Shown here in pieces: positions 25,738-52,259 of a stretch of DNA of 64,000 nt. Made by a program: the position numbers and the translations under genes. The stretch's first letter is position 1, and each line of letters starts with the position of its first letter. The DNA lies in the IMG/VR virus record IMGVR_UViG_3300034389_000010, positions 1 through 64,000 of that record. One strand, given 5' to 3'. Source of the DNA: a virus. Below the pieces are notes generated by a model. That model made no database searches and was not told the DNA's origin. It worked only from the letters and a program-made list of their open reading frames with translations.

Positions 25738-26481
25738 ATGGATACCCTGTTCGACTTCGACAACCAGGCAGACTCCCAGCGCTCGCTCAAGCGCATCAGT
25801 CAGGCCATGCTGCGCGCGGGCCAGCCCGTGGTCAGTAGCGAGTTCAACCTCAAGACCCAGCGCACCGCCGGCGTCAGCTTCCGCTCGGCGCTGCTGACCC
25901 TGGCCAGCGGTCAAACCGTCACCCTGCGCGTCAAGCTGACCGGCGACATCTTCCAGGTCCTGCTCAACAAGTCGGTGCTGCCGATCAAGGACCAGAGCGG
26001 TACCGGCGCGATCGCCGAGATCGCTGCCGCCGCCACTGCCAATCAGAAGAAATTCCAGGCCGCCCAGGCCCGCCAGAAGGCCGAGCTGCCCAAGGGTATC
26101 AAGAGCACGGCGCCGACCATGCTGGCCGCACTGACGACCCGCAGCGCGTTCCTGGACGACCAGATCAAGGAGGCCAGCGCTACCCGCGACGGCCTGCGCC
26201 GTGAGCTGGGCATTGCCCTGGATGCGGTGGGCGAGATCCGCGAGATCAATGACACGGCCACCCACTACGCCCTGAGCGTGTCGCGGAGCATCGGCAAGGG
26301 CCTCACGCTGGACGCCGTAGGCGTGCAGGGCGCCATTGCGCAGCTCGAAGTCTCTCTGGACGTGGTAGAGACCAACGCCCCGCTGTGGGAGGCCAAGGGC
26401 GATCTGGAGCAGGCCGCCTGCAGCCGGGCCAATGCCGCCTCCTACCGCGAGGCGATCCAGATCCTGACCAAGCACCTGTGA
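25738..26481 (+). CDS. hdf: Hdf-like protein (DarA N-terminal domain homolog)
   Basis: GQTVT...GDIFQV.LN...P shared with DarA-like domain in 28586 ORF. Confidence 0.65.
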   Translation: MDTLFDFDNQADSQRSLKRISQAMLRAGQPVVSSEFNLKTQRTAGVSFRSALLTLASGQTVTLRVKLTGDIFQVLLNKSVLPIKDQSGTGAIAEIAAAATANQKKFQAAQARQKAELPKGIKSTAPTMLAALTTRSAFLDDQIKEASATRDGLRRELGIALDAVGEIREINDTATHYALSVSRSIGKGLTLDAVGVQGAIAQLEVSLDVVETNAPLWEAKGDLEQAACSRANAASYREAIQILTKHL

Positions 26482-27810: not shown

Positions 27811-27973
27811 GGCTTGCCTCGCTGGGGATATGCAAGTGACTTGCATATTTGGGTATCAGGTGATACTAATTTGCCGTCGATCGACGTAGGGCAGGCAGCT
27901 TATCCGCTGGCGCTTGCCCTGCTCGGTACGGTTACCGATTAGGTGGGCACAGACCTGCCGCCCAAGAACGCAC

Positions 27974-28585: not shown

Positions 28586-30910
28586 ATGACCGACCTACAC
28601 GCATCCATCCATCAAGCAGCCCACTCGGGCGCCTTTGGCGCTCACCAGGTAGGCCGCCCCTCCGAGGCTCAGTGCCGCGCCGGCAATTACCGCAAGGGCC
28701 GCGTCGTGGTGCAGGGCCTGCGCATCGCCATCGAGGTGCCGCGCAACGAGGAGCGCCGGGGCGTCGATCCCAACGGGACCGCCTGGGCCTGCCGCATGGC
28801 GGCCCACTACGGCTACTTCGAGAAAACCCGTGGCCGCGATGGCGATGAGGTGGATGTCTTCCTGGGTCCGGTCCCTGAGTCACCGCGCGTCTATGTCGTG
28901 AACCAGAACGACGACGCCGGCGCCTTCGACGAACACAAGGTCATGCTCGGCTTCAACGATGCCGAGGCCGCCCGCGCGGCCTACCTGGGCAGCTATTCGC
29001 CGGGCTGGAAGGGCCTGGGCTCGATCGTCGGCGCCACCGTCTCCCAGCTGCGCTGGTGGCTCAAGCATGGCGACACCGCGCGCCCCTTCTCTGCAAACGC
29101 ACTGCCCTACGATGGCGAGGCCGATATGACTCCGACTACCTGGGACGCGAACGCCATGCCGGTGGAAACCGACCTGGCCGCCCTGCTCTACAACATGCGC
29201 CGCAGCGAGGACGCCCCGCTGCTGCTCGATGCCGTCACCGCCGCCGACGTCCTGGAAGGGGTCGAGGAGCTGGCCCAGTTCGACGCCCTGGTGGTGGTCA
29301 ACCAGCGCCTGAACGCCAAGATGGAGCAGATCCAGCGCGTGATGGCCACGGCGAGCGACACCGTCGAGCCGACCGCCCTGCAGATCACCCCGCCCTTCCG
29401 CCAGCGCGGTACCACCCACATCTGCGCCATTTTCGAGCTGAGCGACGGCCAGACCGTCACGATCTGGTTCCACAACCCGGACAGCACTCCGAACAAGATC
29501 CTGCCGACCGATGAGCTGGTCAGCTGGAAGTGGATGCTCAACAAGCTCGACATCACCATCGTGGTGGCGCCCGAGCGCGGCCGCGACCTCAACCCGCGCG
29601 AAGTGGCCCGCCGCATCATGCGCCTGGCCGAGAAGAACAGCGCCCGCTTCCAGAAGGCCAACGCCGGCCGAGCCGAGCGCCTGGCCAAGGTCGAGCAGCT
29701 GCGCGGCGAGGTCGCCGGCAAGGAGGCCCAGCTGCAGGGCCTGGAAGCCGAGATTGAGGCCCTGACCGCCCAGCTCGAAGCCAAGCGAGCCGAGCCCGAG
29801 CCCGTGGCCGACCCTGAGCCTGCTGCTGGTGCAATCCCCGAGTCCGTCCTGCGCATGGTTCGCTACCATGTGGCTGCCCTGCAGCGCCTGGCCAAGCGTT
29901 TCGACGACGTGATCGCCGCGCGCGGCTATGGCCACACGCTGGACCTGGAGCTGGCGGAGTATCAGCCCGAAGTGGACAAGTCCCTGGAAGAGCTGGCCAA
30001 GATTCGTGAGGTTGCCGACCGCAACGGCGCTGACCTGGATAGCGTTATCGCTGAGCTGGGTGGCGTGCCCGACTTCGCCAAGTACCGCGAGGCCCCGGCT
30101 CCAGCCGAAGCGTTCGCTGATCGAGTCCGCCGCCTGATCCCGGATGAGTTCGTGACTACCAGCCAGGGCTCGGACGACATCACCGCTATGGCCGCCGATG
30201 GCTTCGGTATCCGCGTGATGCTCAAAAGCTTTACCAGTGGCCGCGTTAGCGCCGCCGCCTATGTCGTGGACGCCAAGGGGCAGGACAGCATGGGCCATGC
30301 CGCGCCGGACGAAGTGCAGTCGCTGATTGCCGATGCCCTGAACGTGATCGCAGAGAAGCGCGCCGCTGTGGTGTCGGAGCCGGAGCCTGTAGACGAATTT
30401 GCCGAGGTCGATGCGATCCTGACCGGCTTCGGCTTCAAGCGCGTGATGAGCAATGACTGGGCAAGCCGGGCGATCAATCTGGAGAGCGGTGCTGGCGCGG
30501 TTTCCTACAACGTCCGCGCTGGGGGCGAGCCTTTGCAGTACATCCTGCGCAAGAAGGTCACATTCCCTGGTATCACCGGCGCTGGCCAGCTCGTGGGCAC
30601 CTACAGCACGATCGAAGGCCTGACCGAGGCGCTTCGCTCTGTGTCGCTCACCAATGGCGAGCCTGAGACCGCGCCCGAACCGACCCCCGAGCCCGAGACC
30701 AACCCGGCCCAGGACGCCGCCCGCGCCCTGCTGCAGGCCGTCATTGACGGCAGCGAGGATCTGTTCGCCAGCGACCTGGCTGCGCGCCTGGAGGAGGTCT
30801 ATAACGCCTTCACCGAGGACGCCGAGATCATGGCCTTGTTCGAGGAGGCCGCCGGGGTCTACTCGGCCGCCGTGGTCGCCAAAGCCAAGGAGGCGCTGGC
30901 CGCCGCTTAA
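28586..30910 (+). CDS. darA: DarA-like head protein with N-terminal inorganic pyrophosphatase-like domain
   Basis: AGNY.KG..IAIE.P..HYGY..T.G.DGDEVDVF..FDEHKVMLGF; LSDGQTVTI.FH.PD...LNK.DIT..VAPE.G DarA motif. Confidence 0.8.
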   Translation: MTDLHASIHQAAHSGAFGAHQVGRPSEAQCRAGNYRKGRVVVQGLRIAIEVPRNEERRGVDPNGTAWACRMAAHYGYFEKTRGRDGDEVDVFLGPVPESPRVYVVNQNDDAGAFDEHKVMLGFNDAEAARAAYLGSYSPGWKGLGSIVGATVSQLRWWLKHGDTARPFSANALPYDGEADMTPTTWDANAMPVETDLAALLYNMRRSEDAPLLLDAVTAADVLEGVEELAQFDALVVVNQRLNAKMEQIQRVMATASDTVEPTALQITPPFRQRGTTHICAIFELSDGQTVTIWFHNPDSTPNKILPTDELVSWKWMLNKLDITIVVAPERGRDLNPREVARRIMRLAEKNSARFQKANAGRAERLAKVEQLRGEVAGKEAQLQGLEAEIEALTAQLEAKRAEPEPVADPEPAAGAIPESVLRMVRYHVAALQRLAKRFDDVIAARGYGHTLDLELAEYQPEVDKSLEELAKIREVADRNGADLDSVIAELGGVPDFAKYREAPAPAEAFADRVRRLIPDEFVTTSQGSDDITAMAADGFGIRVMLKSFTSGRVSAAAYVVDAKGQDSMGHAAPDEVQSLIADALNVIAEKRAAVVSEPEPVDEFAEVDAILTGFGFKRVMSNDWASRAINLESGAGAVSYNVRAGGEPLQYILRKKVTFPGITGAGQLVGTYSTIEGLTEALRSVSLTNGEPETAPEPTPEPETNPAQDAARALLQAVIDGSEDLFASDLAARLEEVYNAFTEDAEIMALFEEAAGVYSAAVVAKAKEALAAA

Positions 30911-30992
30911 CCCTACCAAACAAGGCGTTACGGCTCACAGGTGACATTTTACGACACTATAAAGCAAGTCACTTGCCTGTTATGCTTTCCTT

Positions 30993-31119
30993 CTCCCGAC
31001 CGCTATTTCGTCAGTTTTGGCGCGATATGTCGGGTAATCACCAGGATCCGTGGATCCTGATGGTGAATGGGGCATGGAAGCCCACCCATTCAGACCCGCC
31101 GCTTTGGCGGGTTTTTTTT
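30993..31119 (+). ncRNA. Candidate ~125-nt structured sRNA
   Basis: Extended -10 TGnTATGCT (30978-30986), three hairpins, intrinsic terminator. Confidence 0.6.
31094..31119 (+). terminator. Rho-independent terminator ACCCGCC-GCTTT-GGCGGGT-T7
   Basis: GC stem plus U tract. Confidence 0.9.
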
Positions 31120-31125
31120 GCCCGC

Positions 31126-31195: not shown

Positions 31196-33760
31196 ATGCC
31201 GACCCCCAACACCCTCACGCCCCTCGCGCGCATCCGTCTGACGGGCGAACTGGGCGAGAAAACCCAGGCGCTGGAAGGCGCCCCCTCCCCCCTTACCCGC
31301 GTGCAGCTGTCCGGCAGCATCATCGAGCTGCTGGCCCTGCTGGGCGCCCCCGTGGCCATCGAGCCCGAGCCCGAGCCCGACACCGAGGACGACGGTCTAT
31401 CCGACGATCCGAACAGCCCGAATTACCGCTTCCGCGACACCGGCTACATCGCCGACAGCCGCAAGGAGCTGGCGCAGAACCTGATCCGGACCGCGCGCCA
31501 GAACGGCGACCAGGTGCTGGCCACCGACCTCGACTGGGAGGCGATCGAGAGCAACCCGCGCGCAGCCGCCGAGATCATCACCAAGTCGAACCTATTCGGC
31601 CAGGTGGACTGGCAGGCCCTCCGAGAGGGCGGGATGGAAGCCGGCGCCGGCTTCCTCATCGATCGCGTCTATGCGTCCATCGCGCCCCAACCGGGCGCCG
31701 ATACGCCCCGCGCGCGCAAGGACTACGCCACCGCCTTGCAGACCGTTCGCCAGCGCCTGGAGTCCTGCAAGACGGCCCAGCAGGTCACCGAGGTGATTCG
31801 CGAGATCCGTGACGAGCTGACCGGTACCCAGCTCAACGCCGAGGAGACTGCGCGCTATGAGCTGGTCACCAAGGACATCGAGGCCTTGGAGACCCGCTGG
31901 CGGGCTCTGCACGACCAGCGCAGCGCCCTGGTCGATGCCGTGACCACGATCCGCAGTGAACTGTGGGGGTTCCAGCGCCAGCAGGACGTCCGCACGCGGC
32001 GCAACTGGAAGCCGGACCCGGCCATACAGGCGGAGATCGATCGCCTGCAGCCGGGCGTCGATGAGGCGATGGCCAAGGTCACCGCCTGGGAGGCGGCCCA
32101 TCCCGAGTACAAGGACACGATGACCACCGTCCATCACCCTGATGGCGGGGTCTCGATGGAGCGCACCGGCGGCATCCGCGCGGAGATCGACGGGCTGCGC
32201 AAGCGGCGGCGCGCGATCGAGGACGCGGCGCGCATCCGCAACATCAGCGAGAGCAGCCTGACCCGTGGCTGGCTGACCTTCGGCGATCGCTTCACCGCCG
32301 TGCTCAACTACCGGCGCTCGAAGGGCTCGGACGCCTTCGACTCGCACGTCACCAACGCCAAGAACGGCAAAATCGACTGGTCGTGGGCTGAAAAAGAGCG
32401 CGTGACCGTCAAGCGCGCCAGTAAGAAAGAGATCGGGTTCCAGCTCAAGGTCGCCGAGCGTCACCAGCGCATCGGCGGCCGCCAGGTGTCCGTCGATTCG
32501 ACGTTCGCGCTCAAGGAGCTGCTGGGCCTGCGCGAGGTGCAGTCCGGTAACTGGGTGCTCAAGGACCCCAACAGCGCCCGCTTCCACGTCGAGCAGACCG
32601 CCATGGCCATGAGCGACCTGTCGGACGTGCTCGGCATTGACATCAAGGCCTTGAGCCTGGGTGGCCGGCTGGCCATGGCCTTCGGCGCCCGTGGTGCGGG
32701 CAATACCGGCTGGGGCGGCGCGGCCGCTGCGCATTACGAGTCGGTCCACCGGGTGATTAACCTGACCAAGATGGGCGGCGGCGGCTGCCTGGCCCATGAG
32801 TGGTTCCACGCCATCGACGACATGCTGGCCGAGCTGGTGAAGGGCGAGGCAGGCCCGGCGCGCAACTTCGCCAGCCTCAATGCCGACGTCCTGCCAGCGG
32901 GCGCCCTGCGCGCGGCCATGACCGAGATCCACGCGGCGATCAATCACGGCGAGCACCGTCTGGTCGAGGCCATCAAGGTCACCGACAAGGATCGCAAGTA
33001 CGCCAAGCACAACATCGACACCGGCATGCCCAATGCGCTGGCGCGCGGCATCAAGCAGGCCGGCGAGCTGAGCGCGGCCGTGCTCTTCGTGAATCGCTAC
33101 TTTGCCGGCCGCGTGGACAAGCGCAGCCAGAAGAATCAAAAGGCCTGGCGCACCCTGGCCGCCGCCTACTACGCGCCGGCGGGCGAGGATGTCGTCCTGG
33201 CCGCCACCGGTCCCGCTGTGTCGAGCTTCTTTTTCGAGGCGGTACGCCTGGACGATGGCCAGCCCGGCAAATACTGGTCCAAGGGCCACGAAATGGCCGC
33301 CCGCGCCTTCCAGTCGTACCTGGAGGACCGCCTGGGCGAGCGTGGCCAGCAGAACGACTACCTGTCGGTCTATGCCGACAACAAGTACCACTTCGACCCC
33401 TTGCTAGGCATCCAGTGGAACCCCTATCCCGAGGGCGAGGAGCGCACCCGCCTCAACGCGGCTTTCGATCGCTTCTTTGCCGCGCTGCGTGATGACCAGG
33501 TGCTGGAGCGCGCGAGCGAAAACACCCCGCTGCTCGACTCGATCTTTGGCGCCGGCCTGCCCAGCGCGCCCGAGGATCCCGAGCAGGAGCTGGCCAGGCT
33601 CCTGGGCCTGATGCGTGAGTACGCCCCCCAGGGCGGCCGCATCCAGCAGGCGCAGCGCGTCATGGAGCTGATCAGCCAGGTCGCGTTCGACGACCCGGAG
33701 ACCGAGGACGAGATTGTGGCCATGGCATCCGAGATCCTGGCGGAGGTGGACCATGCTTAA
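31196..33760 (+). CDS. ddrB: DdrB-like polyvalent head-cargo protein (HEWFH zincin-like and LPD1-like regions)
   Basis: SDDPNSPNYRFRDTGYIADSRKE, LAHEWFHAID, YWS...EMAARAF..Y, PYP.GEER. Confidence 0.75.
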   Translation: MPTPNTLTPLARIRLTGELGEKTQALEGAPSPLTRVQLSGSIIELLALLGAPVAIEPEPEPDTEDDGLSDDPNSPNYRFRDTGYIADSRKELAQNLIRTARQNGDQVLATDLDWEAIESNPRAAAEIITKSNLFGQVDWQALREGGMEAGAGFLIDRVYASIAPQPGADTPRARKDYATALQTVRQRLESCKTAQQVTEVIREIRDELTGTQLNAEETARYELVTKDIEALETRWRALHDQRSALVDAVTTIRSELWGFQRQQDVRTRRNWKPDPAIQAEIDRLQPGVDEAMAKVTAWEAAHPEYKDTMTTVHHPDGGVSMERTGGIRAEIDGLRKRRRAIEDAARIRNISESSLTRGWLTFGDRFTAVLNYRRSKGSDAFDSHVTNAKNGKIDWSWAEKERVTVKRASKKEIGFQLKVAERHQRIGGRQVSVDSTFALKELLGLREVQSGNWVLKDPNSARFHVEQTAMAMSDLSDVLGIDIKALSLGGRLAMAFGARGAGNTGWGGAAAAHYESVHRVINLTKMGGGGCLAHEWFHAIDDMLAELVKGEAGPARNFASLNADVLPAGALRAAMTEIHAAINHGEHRLVEAIKVTDKDRKYAKHNIDTGMPNALARGIKQAGELSAAVLFVNRYFAGRVDKRSQKNQKAWRTLAAAYYAPAGEDVVLAATGPAVSSFFFEAVRLDDGQPGKYWSKGHEMAARAFQSYLEDRLGERGQQNDYLSVYADNKYHFDPLLGIQWNPYPEGEERTRLNAAFDRFFAALRDDQVLERASENTPLLDSIFGAGLPSAPEDPEQELARLLGLMREYAPQGGRIQQAQRVMELISQVAFDDPETEDEIVAMASEILAEVDHA

Positions 33761-35615
33761 CGGTCTGGCACGCATCAAGCTGAGCGGCGAGCTGTCCGAG
33801 CACGTCGCCACCCTGGAAGCGGGTGCGGCGCCCCTGGAGCGCGTGCGGCTGTCGCAGCGCATCCTGGAGCTGCTGGCCCAGCTGGGCGAGGGGCTGCGCC
33901 GCGCGGTGCGCCGCCTGGCCTACTCCCGGACCGACAAGGAGCGCACCAGCCAAGAGCTGGTCAGCTACCTCGCCACCGACCTGGACGCCCTGCCGCCGGC
34001 GCTGGTGCCCTTCGAGCGCAGCACCGTGGCGGATCTGGCCGCGAGCGCGCAGCTCAAGGACCTCGGCGAGCAGGCGCGAGCAGCAGCGCGCCAGGCGCTG
34101 GAGTCTACCGGGCGCGACCAGGCCTATCTGGACGTGCTCGCCGAGCTGAGCCGGGGCGGCGTCACGCCCAGCTTCGAGGCGCAGGCCGTGCTGGACAAGC
34201 ACGAGGAGGCCCTGCAGATCCAGCGCGAGAGCTACGCCAGTAGCCCGGCCTATCAGGCCCTGGTGGCCGAGTGGAGCGCCTACCACAAACAGACCAATGC
34301 GCTGATGATCGAACTGGACCAGCAGGCCAGCGCCCTGCCAAAGGGTGACCCCCAGCGCGAAGCCCTGCTTGAGCGGGTCAATCTGCTGGCGGACGAGTAC
34401 AAGGCGCGGCGCGATGAGGTGAACGCCCGCAACGATGAAATGAACCAGGCCTTCAACCGCGACCGGGCCACCCGTGTGCGCGAGCTGACCGAGACCGAGG
34501 GGCGCAGCGTGCTCGCGGCGATCATGGCCGCATCCCCTGTGACCGAGGAGCAGGCGCAGGCCTGGGCGCAGTCCCAGGAGATCGATGCCAAGGCCCTGGC
34601 CAAGCTCACCAAGGGCGGCTATCCCGAGGCCGACCTGCGCCGGGACCTCGCTGAGTTCTACCGCCTCACCGGCGGCAAGGCATCGGTCGTGCGCCTGACC
34701 ATGGACGGCGGCAAGCGCGCCAACGCCGTGGGCGTCGATACCAAGACCGACGAAAAGCTGATCAACATCGGCGGCGGCTTCTCCAAGGCGATCCTGTTCC
34801 ATGAGCTGGCGCACCACCTGGAGAACGACCCGATCGCTCGCGCCGGCGCCAATGGCTACCTGGTCGCCCGCCGGGAGAGCAGCGACACCCACAAGCTGCG
34901 CGACCTGACCGGCCACAAGGGCTATGACCCGCACGAGATCGCCTACAAAGACAGCTTCCTCAACCCCTACATGGGCAAGGTCTACGAGGGCGGCATCACC
35001 GAGGTGTTTTCGATGGGCGTGGAATACCTGGCCAGCCCGCAGTCGGCGGCGCTCATGGCCGCGCGCGACCCGCAGCTGTTCGCCCTCATCACCGGGTACC
35101 TGACCCGCGAGCTGACCCCGGCCATGCAGGCCAAGCTCGATCTGCACAATGCGGCGATCGACGATATGGCCAGCGAGGAGGAGCGGCTGCAGGAGCAGTT
35201 CCTGCAGGCCCTGCGCGAATTGGTCGATCGCACGCCCCTTACCCCAGATAGCTGGTTCGACGACCTGGACGACTGGCGCCGGCGGCTGCTGATGGACACC
35301 TGTTTCCGCGCCGGCGACCCCCAGTACCTGGGTGCCTTCGGAAACTACCGGGTCTTTGCCGGGGTGTTTAAGAACAAAAATACCGGGCGCAACGCCAAGG
35401 GCCACCTGGTGGTGCAGTGGGGTGAGGAGTACGCGCCCGAGTACGCCACGATCCACGGCGGGCTCGATCTGGCCAAGGCCTTCATCGCCCTGCACCAGAC
35501 GCAAGGCCTGAGCTTTTCCAGCCTCTGGTACGCCTACTTTTTCGAGAAGGCAGGGCGGTCCCCGCGTCGCGCCATCATCAGCACCGCCCAGGCCATCCAG
35601 GAGGCCCGCACTTGA
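33753..35615 (+). CDS. Head-cargo protein with HEXXH metallopeptidase-like domain
   Basis: LFHELAHHLE ... TEVFSMGVE; shared N-terminal tag. Confidence 0.7.
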   Translation: MLNGLARIKLSGELSEHVATLEAGAAPLERVRLSQRILELLAQLGEGLRRAVRRLAYSRTDKERTSQELVSYLATDLDALPPALVPFERSTVADLAASAQLKDLGEQARAAARQALESTGRDQAYLDVLAELSRGGVTPSFEAQAVLDKHEEALQIQRESYASSPAYQALVAEWSAYHKQTNALMIELDQQASALPKGDPQREALLERVNLLADEYKARRDEVNARNDEMNQAFNRDRATRVRELTETEGRSVLAAIMAASPVTEEQAQAWAQSQEIDAKALAKLTKGGYPEADLRRDLAEFYRLTGGKASVVRLTMDGGKRANAVGVDTKTDEKLINIGGGFSKAILFHELAHHLENDPIARAGANGYLVARRESSDTHKLRDLTGHKGYDPHEIAYKDSFLNPYMGKVYEGGITEVFSMGVEYLASPQSAALMAARDPQLFALITGYLTRELTPAMQAKLDLHNAAIDDMASEEERLQEQFLQALRELVDRTPLTPDSWFDDLDDWRRRLLMDTCFRAGDPQYLGAFGNYRVFAGVFKNKNTGRNAKGHLVVQWGEEYAPEYATIHGGLDLAKAFIALHQTQGLSFSSLWYAYFFEKAGRSPRRAIISTAQAIQEART

Positions 35616-35938
35616 TCGCAACCCAATACACCGTGCTGACCCCTTGCGGCAGCTTCCTGGCCCAGTGGGACGCCGATGCGGAGGTGCCGGTGCAGTACGC
35701 AGGCAACCCGGACGGCATCGAATTTTTCCGCCTGAATCTGAGCCTCAATCTCGTCTCCGGGCGCGACGGCCGCCTGCTCAACGCCGACAGCCTTGAGCCC
35801 GACGATCTGTATGGCTTCTGCCAGGACGAGGCGAGCGGCATCGTCGTCATGCCCGGCGCCCAGGATCTGCTCGACATTGCTCAGGCCGAGGCCGAGCGCG
35901 CTCACGAGCACCGCGAGGAGGTGCTGGGCGATGAGTAA
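35612..35938 (+). CDS. Small acidic protein in cargo operon
   Basis: TTG start with GGAGG RBS, overlaps both neighbours. Confidence 0.55.
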   Translation: MIATQYTVLTPCGSFLAQWDADAEVPVQYAGNPDGIEFFRLNLSLNLVSGRDGRLLNADSLEPDDLYGFCQDEASGIVVMPGAQDLLDIAQAEAERAHEHREEVLGDE

Positions 35939-38900
35939 GCCTGTCATGACGGCGCTGCTGCGCGTCCAGCTATCGAATGACCTGGCGGCCGAGGTGGCCG
36001 CCTTGCCGGCAACCAGCCCCCTGGGGCGAGTGCAGGCCACGGGGCGCATCGTCGCCCTGCTGCAGCGCCTGGAAGGCCTGACCATCACCCCCGAGCAGGC
36101 CGCGTTCGACAAGGCCAAGGCGTTCTATCAGGGCACCCTGCAGGGGCAGATCGTGCAATCCGTGGTTGGCCCGGTACGACTGACCGGCAAGGGCTGGCGC
36201 AAGGCGAAATTCGGCCTCAAGGAGGACCTGCTCAAGGCCCGCCTCATCGAGCACATCGTGGAGATCCTGCAGGGCGGTACCGCTGGCCAGCGCCGCGAGC
36301 CCTACAAAGAGCGCGATGACGGCATGGTCGCGTTCTACTTCATCCAGAAGGATGTCCAGATCGACCAGGAGCTGGTCACCGCCGGCGTCACCGTGGGCGA
36401 GGATGCCCAGGGCAATCTGTTCTACAACGTCTCGCATGCCGGGGCCAAGGGCTGGACCGCAAACGAAAACGAAAACGGCACCCTTGATTCCACATGGATA
36501 GAGCCACGCTTCGTCTTGGATGCCGTCAATGACAGCGTAGCAGAGGACGATCTCAATATCACTATCCTGGCAGTGCGTCCTGTCGGCGGCCGCCAGGCCT
36601 TCGCCACGGTGGTGCCGGACAAGGGCGGCGCCGTGCTGATCCTGGGCGATGCCGATGCGATCGCCATGCGGGTCCGCGAGCAGTTCGGCAAGCCGCAGAT
36701 CGTCGAAGGTGGCGTGCGCCTGACCAAGGGCGACGCGCGCCTGGCCGAGTTCATCCCGCGCGAGATCGAGACGCTGGCCAGCGGCGCGGTGCTTGAGCAC
36801 TACGCCTCGGGCGGCGTCGCCGTGCGCGGGGACTTCCGGGGCGGCCTGGAGGGCATCGCCCAGGACCTGCCGCACCTGGAGTCGGCTTTCGTGTACAGCC
36901 ACGGGCCGGAGGTGTTCGCCCAGGTGTTCGGCAAGGAGGCTGACCCAGCGGATGCTCAAGCCTATTTCGAGCAGCAGGACGAGATCGCCCAGCGCCACGC
37001 GGACAACGAAGCCCGCGAGACGGCGGAACGCATCGAGTACGCCCGGCGCACCGACGACTGGAGCAAGGTCACCGCTGAGGAGCGCGCCCAGCTCCAGGCC
37101 GAGCGGGATGCCGCCATGCGTGCCTATGCCGAGCGCGACCTGGCCAATTGGATGGCCACCATCGGCACCGGTACCTCGGATAACCCGCGCCTGCAAGCCT
37201 ATCTGGACACCGTCGAGGATCTGTCGCCAGAAAACCGCACCATGATCCAGGTCGGTTATATGGGCTGGATCCCTAAGCGCATTGCCGAGTACGAGCCCAC
37301 CGCCGGCCGTATGCCCTACCTGCCGGGCTCGCCCACATACATCGCCTGGCAGGCGGGCTTTACCGCCCTTTGCCGCGCCTGGGCTGATGCGCACCTGTCC
37401 GAACGGGTCAAATCTACCGCCTCCGCTGAGCAGGCGCCGCTGTACCAGGTGACCGAGCTGTATCACGGCACGGCCCTGCCCTTCGATACGTTCGCCGAGG
37501 GCCAGCGCCGTGGCGCCGGCTTCGATCACCAGGGCGCCGGCTGGTACCTGACCAACGATCGCCAGGGCCTGGCCCGCTACTTCGCCAGCATGGCCGCCGT
37601 CAAGCTGTCGGGTCGCCCAGGCTTCACCCCCGAGGAGCAGGAGCTGCTGGAAGAGGGCGTGATTCTGCGCGTCTCGATCGCGGGCACCAGGGTGCTGGAT
37701 CTGACCCGAGTGGACGCCGATCCCGAGCTGGTGGCCATGGTGAGCGACATCGTCAACGGCAACGCCCTGCGCGAGCGTGTGCTGGCCATGGGGCTCGATG
37801 GCGTCGCCTTCGTCGAGCCCAACCCGCCCGAGGGCGTGGTAACGCTGCCTGACGCCGTCACTGTGGTCATGTACCACCCGGAAAAGGGCAAAGTCCTGGG
37901 CTACGAGGCCGCCGAAAGCGTGCCGGAGCTGCCTTTCCCCTCGGAGGATCCCCAGCCCGTGCCCCCTACCGGCCGCGCCAAGCCGGGCGGCGAAGTGGGC
38001 GTTAATGGCTTCTTCTACAAGGGCGGCACCTTCCTGCCGACCACCCAGCTGCCGCTACAGGGCAGCCAAGGCCGTACCGCGACCCGCGTCCGTACCTTGC
38101 TGATCGAACCCGGCGTGCGCGCTGAGGCGCCCGATGGCTATGCGGCCATTTTCGGCAGCTACCTGGAGTTCATCCAAGTCGGCGCCGATGGCGTGGCCAG
38201 CCTCCTGGTGCGTCCAGACGAGGCGATCGCCGCCTATGTGAACGATGACGTGGCCGAAGGGCGTGCGTTCCTGCGCGCGGCCGTGGATGCCTACAACGGC
38301 GGCATGCGCTGGTACAAGGCGGGCGACATCGAGGTCACCGAGGAGCACCGGGAGGAGCCGGCCGCCCCTGAGTACGAGATCATCGAGCACGAGACCGGCC
38401 GGAAAAAGATCCTGCGCGGCATCGTCCGGACCGACCTCACCTATGCCCAGGCCAAGGCGATCGATGAGTACACGTTCAAGAAGAACGGCGGCTACTTCAT
38501 CCGCGAGAAGCACCTGGAGAGCATGGGTCTTGCTCCGGCCGGCGGTGGCGAGCCCGCACCGGAGCCGGCTCTGGACCCCGAGGCCGAGGCCCTGCGCCAG
38601 CAGCAGCGCGAGATCGAACGCCAGCAGCGCGAGGCCGATCGCCTGGCCAATGAGCAGGAGCGTGAGCGCCGCCGGGTGACCGAGCAGGTCGCGACCCTGC
38701 GCAAGGTCGCCGCCAGCAGCCTGGAAAAGGCCACCGAGGAGCTGAATCGCGACCGCCAGACCAATACCGCCCGCCGCGCCGGCATGGCGGCCAGCATCCT
38801 GGAGCGCGCCGAGAAAGATCGCGCCCTGTCGGTGACCCTGGGCAACCTCGCCGATGCCATCGAGCAGGGCAAGGCGACGCACCTGGCGGGCCTCACCAGC

Positions 38901-39899
38901 AAGGCCCAGCTGGACACCCTGCATAACGCCCTGGTCGGCGGCCGGCACCGGGCGCAGACCGGCCTGAGCTATGCCCAGCAGCAGGAACTCAAATACTCGC
39001 CGCTGTCGGGCAAGGACGCAGGCTATGCCCAGCTGCCGCGCCTGTTCATGAACCATGACTATGACGCCGTGCAGCGCGCCCTGGAGACCGGCAAGCCCAA
39101 GGGCTGGCAGGCCCTTTCCCGGCAGCTCAAGCAGCAGGACCGGGACAACATCGACCCCGTGCTCTACAACGCCGTGTGGAAGGCCCTGGAGAGCGTCGGC
39201 AAGACGGACGCCTTCAACTGGTACGGCCGCGAGCAGCTGGCCAAGCGGAACCGCCTGACCCGCATGGGCCTCACCACCGACGATGAACTACGCATCGCCC
39301 TGGGCGAGTACCTGCAGTTCAAGGAGGGCGTGCGCGACGATCCGATCGCCAGGGCGGAGCTGGCCATCGTCGGCGAGAAGGTTGGCCTCGATTTCTTCCC
39401 AACGCCCAAGGGCGAGGCCAGCAACATGGCAAGCCTGGCGCAGATCACCAAGGGCATGCGAGTGCTGGAACCGTCCGCCGGCAACGGCAACCTGGCCGAC
39501 GCGGCCCGCGCCGCCGGCGCCGACGTGGACGTGATCGAGATCAGCAGCAGCCTGCGCAAGATCCTGGACGCCAAGGGCTACAACCTGGTGGCGCACGACT
39601 TCATGGAGTTCGCGCCCGAGCAGCCCTATGACGCGATCCTGATGAACCCGCCTTTCTCGAACCGCCGCGACGCCGACCACATCCGACACGCCTTCGGGAT
39701 GCTCAAGCCCGGTGGCCACCTGGTGGCGATCGCAGGCGAAAGCGTGTTCAACGGATCGGACGCCAAGGCGGTGGCCTTCCGCGACTGGCTGGACCAGCAC
39801 GGCGCCGAGGTCGAGCGGCTGGCCAAGGGGACGTTCGAGGACAAGAAACTGCTGGCCACCACCAGCGCCAATGCCCGGCGGATCGTCCTGGTCCGCTGA
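35931..39899 (+). CDS. Large polyvalent protein: LPD3-like, ADP-ribosyltransferase-like, C-terminal N6-adenine methyltransferase
   Basis: LYHGT..F..F...G.G.YLT (ART-PolyVal-like); DFFPTP, VLEPSAGNG, NPPF methylase motifs. Confidence 0.8.
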   Translation: MSKPVMTALLRVQLSNDLAAEVAALPATSPLGRVQATGRIVALLQRLEGLTITPEQAAFDKAKAFYQGTLQGQIVQSVVGPVRLTGKGWRKAKFGLKEDLLKARLIEHIVEILQGGTAGQRREPYKERDDGMVAFYFIQKDVQIDQELVTAGVTVGEDAQGNLFYNVSHAGAKGWTANENENGTLDSTWIEPRFVLDAVNDSVAEDDLNITILAVRPVGGRQAFATVVPDKGGAVLILGDADAIAMRVREQFGKPQIVEGGVRLTKGDARLAEFIPREIETLASGAVLEHYASGGVAVRGDFRGGLEGIAQDLPHLESAFVYSHGPEVFAQVFGKEADPADAQAYFEQQDEIAQRHADNEARETAERIEYARRTDDWSKVTAEERAQLQAERDAAMRAYAERDLANWMATIGTGTSDNPRLQAYLDTVEDLSPENRTMIQVGYMGWIPKRIAEYEPTAGRMPYLPGSPTYIAWQAGFTALCRAWADAHLSERVKSTASAEQAPLYQVTELYHGTALPFDTFAEGQRRGAGFDHQGAGWYLTNDRQGLARYFASMAAVKLSGRPGFTPEEQELLEEGVILRVSIAGTRVLDLTRVDADPELVAMVSDIVNGNALRERVLAMGLDGVAFVEPNPPEGVVTLPDAVTVVMYHPEKGKVLGYEAAESVPELPFPSEDPQPVPPTGRAKPGGEVGVNGFFYKGGTFLPTTQLPLQGSQGRTATRVRTLLIEPGVRAEAPDGYAAIFGSYLEFIQVGADGVASLLVRPDEAIAAYVNDDVAEGRAFLRAAVDAYNGGMRWYKAGDIEVTEEHREEPAAPEYEIIEHETGRKKILRGIVRTDLTYAQAKAIDEYTFKKNGGYFIREKHLESMGLAPAGGGEPAPEPALDPEAEALRQQQREIERQQREADRLANEQERERRRVTEQVATLRKVAASSLEKATEELNRDRQTNTARRAGMAASILERAEKDRALSVTLGNLADAIEQGKATHLAGLTSKAQLDTLHNALVGGRHRAQTGLSYAQQQELKYSPLSGKDAGYAQLPRLFMNHDYDAVQRALETGKPKGWQALSRQLKQQDRDNIDPVLYNAVWKALESVGKTDAFNWYGREQLAKRNRLTRMGLTTDDELRIALGEYLQFKEGVRDDPIARAELAIVGEKVGLDFFPTPKGEASNMASLAQITKGMRVLEPSAGNGNLADAARAAGADVDVIEISSSLRKILDAKGYNLVAHDFMEFAPEQPYDAILMNPPFSNRRDADHIRHAFGMLKPGGHLVAIAGESVFNGSDAKAVAFRDWLDQHGAEVERLAKGTFEDKKLLATTSANARRIVLVR

Positions 39900-39998: not shown

Positions 39999-41663
39999 AT
40001 GACTCGTCACACCTACGACAACCTGGACCACGCGAAGACCGAACGGGCTTTCGATGGTCTGTACCACGAAACCAAAGGCGGCGAACTGCTGCTGGACAGC
40101 GCCGGCGATGGCCCTGTGCAGAGCTTCCTCAAGTCCGAGCAGCTGCCCGAGTGCCTGACCGTCGCCCTGGACCGCGTCTCCGGCATCGCCGACGTCAGCC
40201 GCAAGATGATCGTGGACTCCGTGCTGCAAGGCATGCGCATCCACGAGCAAAAGCACGGCGTCCTGCCGAGTGCTGACCTGATCGCGTCCGCCCTGGACCA
40301 GGTCAAGGCTCACACCTCCACCGGCAAGGAACTGCTGCAGATCGACGGCGTCGGCAGCACCGAGCACCACGACCCGCTGGGCACCCAGCCCGAGCGCATC
40401 CAGCTCGGCATCCTGGCGCAGATCGCCGAAGGCTTCCCGGCCGCGACCTACCTGCCTTGCGACATCGGTTCCAACAAGGCGCTGCTGGGCATCGTCGGCC
40501 ACCGCGCGCTGACCTCTACCGGCGAGTACAACGCCAAGGACTCGCTGGACGGCATCGCCCTGGGCGGTACCTTCCTGAACTCCGAGCGTCGCGTGACCAT
40601 GACCATCGGCGCCGATCGCCTGAGCGCCACCGGCGCCCTGAGCCTCAACAAGGCCGGCGGTTCGGTCAAGCTGTTGCGCAATCGCACCATGGTGTACGTC
40701 AACGGCTTCCCCATGGCCGAGGAAAACACCAACTACAACACCACCCCGACTCAAAGCCCGATCAGCGGCATGGTCACCCTGGCCGGTGTCGAGATCGGCA
40801 TCACTGGTTGGGTCAAGCCGGACACCGGCGAGATCAGCCTGACCTTCACCTCTGCGCTGCCGGCGGGCACCAAGGTCGTCGGTGAGGGCTTCCTGGACTA
40901 CGAGGCCGATCCGAGCATCACCCCGGAGCTGTCCAGCAACGTCCAGACCTACTCGCTGTACGCCCATGCCTGGCGCGGCGTGATGCGTCAGACCATCGAC
41001 TCCAAGACCCAGTACCAGAACGAGCTGGGTATCGACCTGCTGAGCGAGTCGATGATGTCGGCCCGTAACCAGCAGACCGTCGAGCGTCACCGTTCGATCC
41101 TGCGCAAGGCGATCGACCTGGGTGCTGCCAACCAGGATACGTTCGACTTCGACTACGACGGCATGATGCAGCAGAAGACCCGCGCCCAAATCTGGCAGGA
41201 CTTCACTGCCATCCTGGGCAACGTCGATCAGCAGATGGCGATCGACACCATGGATCGCGGCATCACCCACCTGTATGTCACCAAGCTGGTGAAGGCGCAG
41301 TGGGAGGCCCTGCCCTCGGACCTGTTCGAGAAGTCGGGTCTGCCGTCGCAGCCGGGTATCTACCGCCTGGGCCGCCTGTTCGGTCGCTTCGAGGTGTACT
41401 ACACCCCGTGGGAGCTGAAAGAGGACGAGGCCGCCGGTACCGCGCAGATCCTGTGCCTGGGCCGTTCCGCGACTCCGGCCCGCAACAGCTTCGTGCTGGG
41501 CGACGCCGTGCCGCTGATCATGCTGCCGCTGGCTGTGAACTCCGACCTGCGCTACGGCCAGGCGCTGTACGCCCGGAACTTCACCGCCGTGAACCCGCAC
41601 CAGCCCAGCGCCAAGGGCGCCGCGCTGATCACCGTCACCGGTCTGTTCAAGAAGGCCGCGTAA
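39999..41663 (+). CDS. Major capsid protein (P1 gp23-like)
   Basis: 554 aa, highly biased codons, before sheath, P1-like Q.QNELGID and G.AVP motifs. Confidence 0.8.
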   Translation: MTRHTYDNLDHAKTERAFDGLYHETKGGELLLDSAGDGPVQSFLKSEQLPECLTVALDRVSGIADVSRKMIVDSVLQGMRIHEQKHGVLPSADLIASALDQVKAHTSTGKELLQIDGVGSTEHHDPLGTQPERIQLGILAQIAEGFPAATYLPCDIGSNKALLGIVGHRALTSTGEYNAKDSLDGIALGGTFLNSERRVTMTIGADRLSATGALSLNKAGGSVKLLRNRTMVYVNGFPMAEENTNYNTTPTQSPISGMVTLAGVEIGITGWVKPDTGEISLTFTSALPAGTKVVGEGFLDYEADPSITPELSSNVQTYSLYAHAWRGVMRQTIDSKTQYQNELGIDLLSESMMSARNQQTVERHRSILRKAIDLGAANQDTFDFDYDGMMQQKTRAQIWQDFTAILGNVDQQMAIDTMDRGITHLYVTKLVKAQWEALPSDLFEKSGLPSQPGIYRLGRLFGRFEVYYTPWELKEDEAAGTAQILCLGRSATPARNSFVLGDAVPLIMLPLAVNSDLRYGQALYARNFTAVNPHQPSAKGAALITVTGLFKKAA

Positions 41664-51386: not shown

Positions 51387-51856
51387 AAAACCTACTCAAC
51401 AAGCACGTTCCGCCCCACATTTTCTGGCCGTCCTTTCTGCTGCTGATCTTTGGCGGCATGGCGGGCGCGATCCTGAGCATCATGGTGGTGGGCAGTAATC
51501 CGTTCCAGGTGACGAACCTGGGCACGATCAACGTCGCCGGCGAGGCGCAGACCCAGTTCCATCCCGGCGACGTCGTGGTGGTCCGCCGGCAGGTCTGCAC
51601 CGACAAGGGCGTCACCCTGACGTTCTATCCGGGGATGCGCAGCGGCCAGGGCGTGCTGTTCGCGCTGCCCGTGGGCGCCTCCCGCTTCGCCCAGGGCTGT
51701 CGCGAGACGCTGTATGGCTTCGTGCTGCCCGCGCAGATCCTGCCCGGCACCTACACCTACCAGAACCTGGTCCAGTACCAGACCAACTGGATCGGCCGGG
51801 ATGAGGCAAACGTCTACCCGCCCCTGACCTTCGAGGTGGTGGCCAATGATCACTGA
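51383..51856 (+). CDS. Membrane-anchored periplasmic protein
   Basis: N-terminal TM, two Cys, beta domain. Confidence 0.6.
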   Translation: MKNLLNKHVPPHIFWPSFLLLIFGGMAGAILSIMVVGSNPFQVTNLGTINVAGEAQTQFHPGDVVVVRRQVCTDKGVTLTFYPGMRSGQGVLFALPVGASRFAQGCRETLYGFVLPAQILPGTYTYQNLVQYQTNWIGRDEANVYPPLTFEVVANDH

Positions 51857-52259
51857 CACCCTGATGAAACCCCTGTACGTCGCCCTCGCCCTGCTGGCGG
51901 CGCTGGGCTTCGGCGTCGGGACCTACGTCGTGGTCGGCTGGCAGATGGAGAACACCTATCTGCACCAGCTCAACGACAGCAAGACCACCATCATCAACCA
52001 GAACACCAGCATTCTGACCCTAACGCAGAATCAGACGACACTGCAGGCGGCGATCCAGCGGCAGAATCAGGCGGTGGAGCTGGCCGAGGAGCGCACCCGG
52101 CACGCCGAGCAGCAGCAGGCCCTGGCCAAGGCGGCGCTGGCCAGCCAGGCCAAGCAGAGCGATGCACGCATTGTCGGCCTGCAGAAGGATCTGGCGAACG
52201 TCCAGGTGACGCTGGCCACCCTGCTGCGCAAGAACTGGGAGGCGAGCCGCCATGAGTGA
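51846..52259 (+). CDS. i-spanin (Rz-like)
   Basis: N-terminal TM and coiled coil. Confidence 0.75.
   Translation: MITDTLMKPLYVALALLAALGFGVGTYVVVGWQMENTYLHQLNDSKTTIINQNTSILTLTQNQTTLQAAIQRQNQAVELAEERTRHAEQQQALAKAALASQAKQSDARIVGLQKDLANVQVTLATLLRKNWEASRHE

Follow-up and report, generated by a model that had tools for sequence, protein, structure and literature searches.

Three large proteins encoded downstream of a DarA-like gene begin with the same N-terminal module of about 45 residues, and this tag is probably a handle that loads the three enzymes into the phage head. As judged from profile and pairwise comparisons, the homology of the tag across these proteins (cargo1, cargo2 and cargo3) is real, and the tag is the sole region common to all three. 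We think it fairly likely that the tag is a docking module derived from DdrA, which was fused to the cargo and would act like the capsid-targeting signals of P1 DarB and phage T4; packaging is here deduced from sequence homology and analogy. If that deduction were wrong, the tag would still stand as a new domain conserved among polyvalent proteins of phages. The window, that is, the whole stretch of 64,000 nucleotides analysed here, covers the initial 64 kb of a virus record of 98 kb (97,934 bp), which belongs to a P1-like Pseudomonas phage-plasmid.

The Dar locus and its cargo genes

A Hdf-like gene, a DarA-like gene and then the tagged genes follow each other in the window (Table 1), and portal, protease-position, sheath, baseplate and PmgG-like genes lie around them. 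DarA with a DarA_N domain and the Hdf paralogue are both located in the late/morphogenetic region, and the cargo is related to the DdrB metallopeptidase (cargo2) and to the DarB adenine methylase (cargo3). Judged by its gene content, this is a genuine P1-type Dar locus. The DarA-like protein consists of an InPase domain, a DarA_N domain and a long C-terminal region, which ends in a "type-2" C-module of about 65 residues. This C-end is kept in the DarA-like proteins of Xanthomonas phage Rb1, L002 and L006 and in a small Acinetobacter protein, L010b (z 5.7-12).

Table 1. Features of the Dar locus, in window coordinates.
Feature	Position	Strand	Evidence
Hdf-like internal head protein gene	25738..26481	+	phrog_1620 "Hdf-like antirestriction" E 8.9e-31; BLASTP vs P1 Hdf 5e-7
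DarA-like gene	28586..30910	+	Pfam InPase 1.2e-52, DarA_N 2.7e-40; BLASTP vs P1 DarA 1e-22
Non-coding leader between darA and cargo1	30966..31122	+	promoter-like box and terminator-like hairpin
cargo1, 854 aa	31196..33760	+	Pfam LPD1 4.7e-19; phrog_29900 1e-101; HEWFH motif
Tag 1, helical hairpin at the N-terminus of cargo1	31196..31345	+	stand-alone DdrA-position HMM E 2.3e-5
cargo2, 620 aa	33753..35615	+	BLASTP vs P1 DdrB residues 781-971, 3e-12; HELAHH motif
Tag 2, N-terminus of cargo2	33753..33887	+	stand-alone N-module HMM E 2.1e-9; phrog_1855 E 1.6e-4
Small untagged gene, 108 aa	35612..35938	+	separate ORF in L002, L006, L007 (z about 40); dN/dS 0.23
cargo3, 1322 aa polyvalent protein	35931..39899	+	Pfam LPD3 1.9e-12, Methyltransf_23 3e-8; BLASTP vs P1 DarB methylase 5e-6
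Tag 3, N-terminus of cargo3	35931..36074	+	leave-one-out E 1.1e-6; shuffle z about 10

The leader box AAGTCACTT (30966-30974) resembles the -22 box of P1 late promoters when compared with P1 LPdar and LPs, and the late-promoter-like pattern occurs twice in the window, with 0.14 occurrences expected. A terminator scan found a strong terminator-like hairpin with a T-run at 31092-31122, between darA and cargo1. Inspection of the upstream DNA revealed no obvious Shine-Dalgarno sequence at the cargo1 start; the start agrees with the annotated start in a Pseudomonas plasmid orthologue and with database gene calls. Because the neighbouring ORFs of cargo1, cargo2, the 108-aa gene and cargo3 overlap by 4-8 nt, these four genes are surely co-transcribed with each other. 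The first-pass annotation had described three consecutive, co-transcribed genes. Co-transcription is supported by these overlaps, and the genes do lie close together on the + strand; however, the second and third are separated by the conserved 108-aa gene (35612-35938). In other phages, DarB-like giants have an N-terminal domain that is homologous to the 108-aa protein (z 8 for that of Rb1). The 108-aa protein had neither a Pfam family nor a match in PHROGs.

In cargo1, the tag is followed by an acidic/Pro-rich linker, a helical region and an HExxH zincin with LPD1. It had been called DdrB-like in the first-pass annotation, but it is an LPD1 zincin protein that gave no BLASTP match to P1 DdrB. 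Cargo2 comprises the tag, a long helical region and an HExxH zincin homologous to the C-terminal metallopeptidase of P1 DdrB; the ParB domain of DdrB is not present in the window cargo. A Foldseek search with the cargo2 model against PDB found nothing significant. Cargo3 is built of the tag, LPD3, middle domains, a coiled coil and a DarB-type adenine methyltransferase, without a helicase. The effectors had been given as zincin, ART and methylase: two zincins and a DarB-type methylase are indeed found, but the supposed ART domain of cargo3 had no Pfam match, even for sub-regions at E<=0.5. The catalytic domains of cargo2 and cargo3 are homologous to P1 DdrB (3e-12) and DarB (5e-6), both of which are packaged in P1 heads.

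Iyer et al. (2017, PMC5512222) have described polyvalent proteins, and the window cargo is of this kind: multi-domain LPD/MPTase/methylase mosaics in a late-gene context. The likeness includes LPD1, LPD3, the zincin MPTase and the DarB-type methylase, and extends to the setting, with InPase and DarA-N next door and late/head genes around (PMC5512222). The main text of that survey never mentions DdrA (PMC5512222), and Pfam has LPD models but no family for the tag or for DdrA.

The shared tag and its conservation

The three tags align over about 45 residues with 42-53% identity and 13 invariant columns. Smith-Waterman scores between tags were 109, 74 and 72, against about 24 +/- 4.8 for shuffled sequences (z 10-18), and 0/2000 shuffles scored as high. 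Leave-one-out tag profiles, run on all six reading frames of the complete genome (97,934 bp), recovered the third tag at E 3.7e-15, 2.9e-12 and 1.1e-6; besides the left-out tag, nothing in these frames was better than E 0.2. Outside the tag, BLASTP shows no significant similarity among cargo1, cargo2 and cargo3. The N-termini read as they had first been quoted, and the original claim of an N-terminal tag on three otherwise unrelated proteins is borne out. A search of the 98-kb genome found no tag on its DarA and Hdf. A fourth, weaker copy had been proposed near the C-terminus of cargo1; it was rejected as noise (domain score 1.6, E 26; BLASTP E 0.18).

The tag is an internal duplication of one helix of about 20 residues, as its two halves match each other in hhalign at P 8.6e-10. 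AF2 modelling of cargo2 (mean pLDDT 81.6) placed the two helices of tag 2 at residues 4-22 and 27-51. In cargo2, as in a stand-alone protein described below, the model gave a two-helix hairpin and then a low-confidence linker. Both results agree with the two-fold helical repeat noticed at first reading. The hairpin is amphipathic; each repeat has conserved Arg residues, and the tags are net neutral in charge.

Zincin peptidases often have inhibitory pro-segments. Cargo1 and cargo2 are such peptidases, and a flexible linker follows the tag, so that the module might be an intramolecular pro-domain or a chaperone-like segment, which would keep the peptidases and the methylase folded or inactive in the producer cell and have no role in localisation. 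We consider this very unlikely, because the same module is carried by non-peptidase mosaics and by small enzyme-free proteins, and because the AF2 hairpin is separate from the rest and leads into a low-confidence linker.

Our comparison of orthologues shows purifying selection on the tags. In a P. psychrotolerans plasmid, each of the three proteins has kept its orthologous tag (dN/dS 0.23-0.52), and the tags diverge faster than the catalytic parts. The orthologous tags of two phages are more similar than the paralogous tags inside one phage, and the DNA identity between tags is modest. These data bear on whether the tag similarity could be a functionless by-product, left by a recent duplication or by gene conversion where gene starts are translationally coupled. 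In favour of such an origin, the genes lie next to each other, with starts that overlap the stop of the gene before. However, the modest DNA identity, the greater similarity of orthologues, dN/dS below 1 and the conservation of the module in Pseudomonas, Xanthomonas, Uliginosibacterium and Acinetobacter elements all speak against it. We give a by-product of this kind next to no credence, and the conservation data have effectively refuted it already.

Distribution of the module and its relation to DdrA

The first-pass annotation had suggested a profile search with the tags for diverse fused domains. Among 1.84e9 representatives, we obtained 18 matches at E<=1e-3, and 16 of them were true. The module lies <=13 residues from the N-terminus in 14 of the 16, and P0038 would be the fifteenth if it started at Met26. 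In P0037 the module is internal, after an LPD3 domain; because of this protein and of the N-terminal extensions on some stand-alone proteins, the extreme N-terminal position is, on the evidence of these matches, not obligatory. Module-bearing representatives range from 120 to 1285 aa and differ in their downstream domains, which gives at least six architectures. Non-peptidase mosaics are included, and mosaic relatives share and swap modules.

All traced sources of the module are P1-like elements of about 90-114 kb, mostly from Pseudomonas oryzihabitans/psychrotolerans, and the elements with the module span Pseudomonas, Xanthomonas, Uliginosibacterium and Acinetobacter. The suggestion of a portable label is upheld by the number of architectures, but the family is narrow and confined to P1-like phages, and it is no general label of phages and plasmids. 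A tblastn search with tag2 against 50,697 phage records and a scan of genome contigs with cargo2 alone returned nothing, and the ESM Atlas gave no usable match. When IMG/VR was scanned with the tag alignment and P0036, a single spurious locus was all that turned up.

The small relatives of the tag form a 31-member family of 123-243-aa proteins, in which an N-module, a Pro-rich linker and a C-module follow each other; some carry N-terminal extensions. An HMM of the stand-alone N-module alone finds tag2 and tag1 (Table 1), together with the tags of L002 and L006. The present analysis establishes, at the level of sequence profiles, homology between the tag and the N-module of these stand-alone DdrA-position proteins. 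This relation is new and gives the tag a concrete origin.

In Xanthomonas phage Rb1, the stand-alone gene is an unannotated ORF (L001:19646-20119) directly downstream of a darA-like gene; its counterpart in an Acinetobacter lwoffii contig likewise comes directly after a darA-like gene. This is the position of ddrA in P1, and in the window the same position, first downstream of darA, is taken by cargo1. In a Uliginosibacterium prophage, the gene for the same small protein lies just upstream of the zincin gene. PHROGs contained no match for the Acinetobacter and Uliginosibacterium small proteins, and Foldseek with a stand-alone protein model against BFVD found nothing significant.

The relation to P1 DdrA itself (phrog_1855, a 121-aa internal head protein) was compared in several ways. 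The DdrA-like profile phrog_1855 matches tag2 (E 1.6e-4 in the own-genome search, 1.8e-3 elsewhere), covering only profile positions 2-50 of 114, and it did not match tags 1 and 3 directly. It also matches P0031, P0036 and P0038 (1e-3 to 7e-3), each time along positions 2-64 of the profile; P0036 and P0038, which are stand-alone relatives, score 5e-3 to 7e-3. Conversely, when the stand-alone-family HMM was run on P1 (791 six-frame ORFs of a 45-kb stretch), DdrA came out on top (E 0.042), followed by the C-terminus of DarA. The hhalign comparison of the stand-alone family with DdrA was in register (P 0.0013). Besides the gene position, the likeness includes an N-terminal two-fold repeat that ends in [LM]G and is followed by a Gly/Pro-rich linker. 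Direct similarity to E. coli P1 DdrA is marginal, however, at 5-10 bits, and the charge pattern of enteric DdrA is inverted, with acidic or hydrophobic residues in place of the conserved Arg of the tag. On this moderate evidence, P1 DdrA probably belongs to the same group as the stand-alone N-module proteins.

Unlike DdrA, a small stand-alone protein of about 120 aa that has an N-half and a C-half, the window proteins (620-1322 aa) keep the N-half only, and enzymes replace the C-half. The 98-kb genome has no stand-alone N+C protein.

Docking to the head interior

Gonzales et al. (2022, PMC9024508) reported that the N-terminal 30 residues of P1 DarB suffice as a capsid-targeting signal, a published result that agrees with what the first-pass annotation had stated. 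They expected a common signal among Dar proteins and found no consensus in P1 (PMC9024508). The window clade supplies a conserved, domain-sized N-terminal module common to Dar cargo, which would be that shared signal, and its origin can be traced to a DdrA-type protein. In the account of PMC12810830 that cites Piya 2017, DarA and Hdf line the inner capsid and are required for all other Dar proteins, and DdrA enters next.

From these comparisons, the following course of events may be proposed. In the Pseudomonas oryzihabitans/psychrotolerans clade, a small stand-alone DdrA-type module would have been fused to the N-termini of Dar cargo enzymes, namely two zincin peptidases (one DdrB-type) and a DarB-type methylase mosaic. 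While the prohead is being assembled, the hairpin would dock the attached protein onto the DarA/Hdf layer of the inner capsid wall, most likely at the flexible C-terminal part of DarA. The docked enzymes would become enclosed and would later exit with the DNA. By such docking, the module would work like the N-terminal signals of P1 DarB and T4 IPIII, without detectable homology to them.

The module resembles the DarB signal in several respects. Each lies at the N-terminus of a protein from the Dar system of a P1-type phage, the two have homologous cargo (DarB-type methylase), and the same dependence on DarA/Hdf is expected. Portability is experimental for the first 30 residues of DarB and natural for the window module, where at least six architectures are seen and the function is deduced. 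Unlike the DarB signal (<30 residues), the window module is a conserved domain of 45 residues common to three proteins. Tag HMMs gave no match to the DarB N-terminus in the P1 six-frame translation, and no similarity was detected between the tag and the N-termini of P1 DdrB or Ulx. By analogy, we infer that the tag works like capsid-targeting sequences without being a sequence member of the P1 DarB signal.

T4 IPIII also has an N-terminal address (CTS); such addresses bring proteins for injection, anti-restriction proteins among them, into the prohead, and foreign cargo can be loaded in this way too (Mullaney and Black, as cited in PMC9024508). As summarised there, the T4 CTS is some 10 residues long, attaches to the scaffolding core and is removed by gp21 (PMC9024508), whereas the window module is a 45-residue hairpin domain. 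P1-type phages, unlike T4, have no separate scaffold. We found no conserved protease site after the tags: nothing that corresponds to the cleavage context of P1 gp23 (AMLE|SVAAEM) is conserved there, nor in the capsid protein that the window encodes at 39999-41663.

The module could also serve exit rather than entry, as a tether to the packaged DNA or to the portal/tail channel by which the enzymes leave with the DNA. Dar protection acts in cis only, on packaged DNA (PMC12707154), and conserved Arg residues in each tag repeat would suit such a role. However, the tags are net neutral, and the acidic or hydrophobic residues of DdrA, the probable P1 counterpart, argue against conserved DNA binding. 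The published P1 and T4 N-terminal signals, moreover, act at packaging (PMC9024508). We therefore regard an exit or tethering signal as quite improbable.

A self-association module is another alternative, in which the hairpin would form a coiled coil or four-helix bundle and co-assemble the Dar proteins, perhaps as an internal network, instead of addressing the capsid or DarA. An amphipathic two-helix hairpin made from a duplicated helix is suited to this, and the tags on several proteins of one phage could bundle. The stand-alone proteins, which join the tag to a C-module also found at DarA C-termini, would fit an adaptor chain of the form DarA(C)-(C)DdrA(N)-(N)cargo. But the window genome lacks a stand-alone N+C adaptor and its DarA and Hdf are untagged; therefore, tag-tag bundling alone would not join the cargo to the head. 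We judge self-association unlikely, and docking onto the DarA/Hdf layer is the reading that we prefer.

A broader version of docking is tentative, and we hold it to be doubtful. The interior of P1-like Dar heads may be a two-part connector system, in which the hairpin N-module binds the C-module of about 60 residues at the end of DarA, seen in two types. DarA would present the C-module from the capsid wall, and the cargo of the window clade would plug in directly by its N-module. DdrA-type proteins, with both modules, would serve as adaptors or lengthen the chain, and P1 DdrA would have this function. P1 would then have no visible common targeting signal because the link there is non-covalent, via DdrA. 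Apart from this broader version, the relation of the tag to DdrA-type proteins suggests a specific function for DdrA and for the flexible C-terminus of DarA, a part not resolved in the 2026 cryo-EM study (PMC12810830). The comparisons also define two or three new small domains without a Pfam counterpart, and the tag offers a natural, well-delimited object for the study of protein loading into phage heads.

As independent parallels, common N-terminal regions were also seen in other Dar-type loci. In a Neisseriaceae contig, two neighbouring Dar-type proteins, with only a homologue of the 108-aa gene between them, share another N-terminal motif (z about 11). In Acinetobacter, two small proteins, each encoded just upstream of a large cargo gene, have a common N-module (z about 10).

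The Dar locus and its three tagged proteins

The window comprises the initial 64 kb of one virus record (97,934 bp, about 66% G+C). P1-type morphogenesis genes form a long + strand block, which encodes a terminase-like protein, portal, tape-measure/transglycosylase, baseplate, tail fibre, sheath and a PmgG-like protein, with a further gene placed where P1 has its prohead protease. The Dar locus is situated within this block (Table). A 285-nt spacer separates the darA-like gene from cargo1, after which cargo1, cargo2, small108 and cargo3 are translationally coupled. In BLASTP against P1, the DarA-like protein matched DarA at 1e-22 and the Hdf-like protein matched Hdf at 5e-7; the zincin of cargo2 matched the metallopeptidase at the DdrB C-terminus (3e-12), and the methylase of cargo3 matched DarB (5e-6). 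The ART domain that the first-pass annotation assigned to cargo3 was not confirmed by Pfam.

Table. Features of the Dar locus and of related elements. Positions without prefix are in the window; L001, Xanthomonas phage Rb1; L007, Neisseriaceae; L008, Uliginosibacterium; L009, Sphaerotilus; L010, Acinetobacter.
Feature	Coordinates	Strand	Details
Hdf-like gene	25738-26481	+	phrog_1620 8.9e-31
DarA-like gene	28586-30910	+	Pfam InPase 1.2e-52, DarA_N 2.7e-40
cargo1	31196-33760	+	854 aa; HExxH zincin with LPD1 (Pfam)
cargo2	33753-35615	+	620 aa; zincin
small108 gene	35612-35938	+	108 aa, untagged; between cargo2 and cargo3
cargo3	35931-39899	+	1322 aa; methylase and LPD3 (Pfam)
Region with late-promoter-like box and terminator-like hairpin, between darA-like stop and cargo1	30941-31122
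Late-promoter-like box, second copy	27834-27842	-
Second-type C-module: C-end of the DarA-like protein (window) and loci in L010 and L009	30716-30910; L010:11599-11955; L009:11112-12776		~65 aa, helical; LLQAVIDG ... LFEEAA.AY
Rb1 unannotated ORF	L001:19646-20119 (PQ569993.1 about 51467-51940)		about 150 aa; between 'internal head protein' (DarA-like) and metallopeptidase genes
Neisseriaceae N-terminal motif	L007:9923-10050 and L007:12113-12270		~30 residues, P..P.FFDDLR.LR...QA; score 81 vs 26 +/- 5
Uliginosibacterium DarB-like giant	L008:10954-17751

The N-termini of the three cargo proteins are alike, as had been noticed from the sequence, with 42-53% identity across about 45 residues and local alignment scores 10-18 standard deviations over shuffles. 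In a six-frame translation of the whole genome, two-tag profiles recovered the third tag (3.7e-15, 2.9e-12 and 1.1e-6) and nothing else below E 0.2. Outside the tag, BLASTP found no significant similarity among the three proteins. The proposed two-fold internal repeat is genuine (first-helix against second-helix profile, P 8.6e-10), and AF2 predicted helices at cargo2 residues 4-22 and 27-51, followed by a low-confidence linker. The weaker fourth copy suggested at the cargo1 C-terminus was noise (profile score 1.6).

The box upstream of cargo1 (AAGTCACTT, then TATGCT) resembles the -22 box of P1 late promoters. It is followed, about 100 nt further 3', by a strong hairpin of terminator type that has a run of eight T. 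There is no ORF here, and the stretch may represent an attenuated leader or encode a small RNA.

Spread of the tag and selection on it

We searched 1.84 billion representatives with the tag profile and obtained 18 matches at E<=1e-3, 16 of them true and two repeat-protein artefacts. The module lies at most 13 residues from the N-terminus in 14 of the 16; it would also be N-terminal in P0038 if Met26 is the start, and in P0037 it is internal, C-terminal to an LPD3 domain. The tag-bearing proteins span 120-1285 aa and at least six architectures: cargo1-type, cargo2-type, LPD3/methylase mosaics of varied make-up, short mosaics of 246-384 aa with a phrog_12906 domain, a stand-alone 130-aa form, and LPD3-tag-zincin. 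Those with a known source come from contigs of 90-114 kb, Pseudomonas oryzihabitans among them. Thus, the module is portable, as the first-pass annotation had proposed, yet it is restricted to a clade of P1-like elements.

The 114-kb P. psychrotolerans plasmid CP018759 has a gene order identical to that of the window locus, with all three tags at annotated gene starts. Between the two, dN/dS was 0.52, 0.41 and 0.23 for the tags and 0.17-0.29 for the remainder of the tagged proteins, and orthologous tags were more alike than paralogous ones. These values indicate that the tags are old and under purifying, somewhat relaxed selection, and that they do not form a recent conversion tract.

Stand-alone proteins, DdrA and a possible docking role

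Tag2 matched phrog_1855 ('DdrA-like anti-restriction protein') at E 1.8e-3 (1.6e-4 in an own-genome search), spanning the first half of the profile end to end, and three further tag family members matched it in identical register. In Rb1, the ORF directly 3' of the DarA-like gene, the place that ddrA occupies in P1, matched the tag profile (E 3.6e-4) and is a clear stand-alone family member (N-module, E 8e-24; C-module, E 6e-28). A database search seeded with such small proteins gave 31 proteins of 123-243 aa with a common layout, in which a Pro-rich linker joins an N-module to a C-module of ~60 aa. An HMM restricted to the N-module of these proteins matched window tag2 (2.1e-9) and tag1 (2.3e-5), as well as tags of two further Pseudomonas elements. 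Against 791 ORFs from a six-frame translation of a 45-kb P1 stretch, the top-ranked match of the stand-alone-family HMM was DdrA (E 0.042), followed by the DarA C-terminus; in hhalign, the family aligned in register with enteric DdrA (P 0.0013). On these profile matches, we regard the homology of the tag to the stand-alone N-module as established. The identity of the stand-alone family with P1 DdrA is probable rather than proven.

According to PMC12810830, which cites Piya et al. 2017, the inner capsid wall is lined by DarA and Hdf, both required by all other Dar proteins, with DdrA incorporated next, then DdrB, DarB and Ulx. A reporter enters P1 heads when it carries no more of DarB than the first 30 residues, yet the N-termini of the P1 Dar proteins yielded no consensus (PMC9024508). 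The window proteins have a DdrA-type N-module covalently joined to domains homologous to the packaged P1 DdrB and DarB. The simplest reading, which we somewhat favour and in which packaging is inferred, is that the N-module, here fused to cargo, would serve as the docking element of the Dar system. A self-association module, a DNA or exit tether, or a pro-domain would be less consistent with the occurrence of the module on enzyme-free small proteins, with a genome that has no stand-alone adaptor, and with enteric DdrA lacking the conserved arginines. For the docking element, the most attractive candidate receptor, itself rather doubtful, would be the DarA C-terminal module.

Further modules and genes of Dar loci

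The stand-alone C-module also forms the C-terminal end of the Sphaerotilus prophage DarA-like protein (E 3.2e-12) and weakly resembles the P1 DarA C-terminus; its ~60-aa pattern in the stand-alone and Sphaerotilus proteins is ..AG.hD..GL..LL.KI..A...L...G.L.GD.E.lAH.AI.HWA.LE. A second type is found at the C-end of the DarA-like proteins from the window, Rb1 and two other tag-bearing elements (L002 and L006), of another Dar-locus protein in Sphaerotilus, and of the second small N-module protein of Acinetobacter (z 5.7-8.4). An InPase (inorganic pyrophosphatase-like) domain precedes DarA_N in the DarA-like proteins of the window, Rb1, L006 and Sphaerotilus, where P1 DarA has a cleaved-off N-terminal segment of ~69 residues.

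Acinetobacter has two small N-module proteins, each encoded just ahead of a large cargo gene. The contig of Neisseriaceae bacterium TC5R-5 has a different N-terminal motif, common to two neighbouring Dar-type proteins (z about 11) with only a small108 homologue in between, and this motif may take the place of the tag in that lineage. Thus, it appears to be general that Dar proteins within a phage have an N-terminal element in common.

Small108 is conserved as an ORF of its own in other elements from Pseudomonas and Neisseriaceae (z about 40). Its counterpart in Rb1 is the N-terminal part (~90 residues) of the DarB-like giant, and in the Sphaerotilus contig the same part of the protein whose gene follows that of the zincin (z 6.5-8). 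It has no family in Pfam or PHROG, and might act as a helper resembling Ulx or as a further loading element. The Hdf-like protein of the window (phrog_3376) ends in a stretch of ~45 residues (202-243) that matches the Uliginosibacterium DarB-like giant at residues 147-188 (E 4e-7) and constitutes one more small shuffled module among those of the Dar locus.
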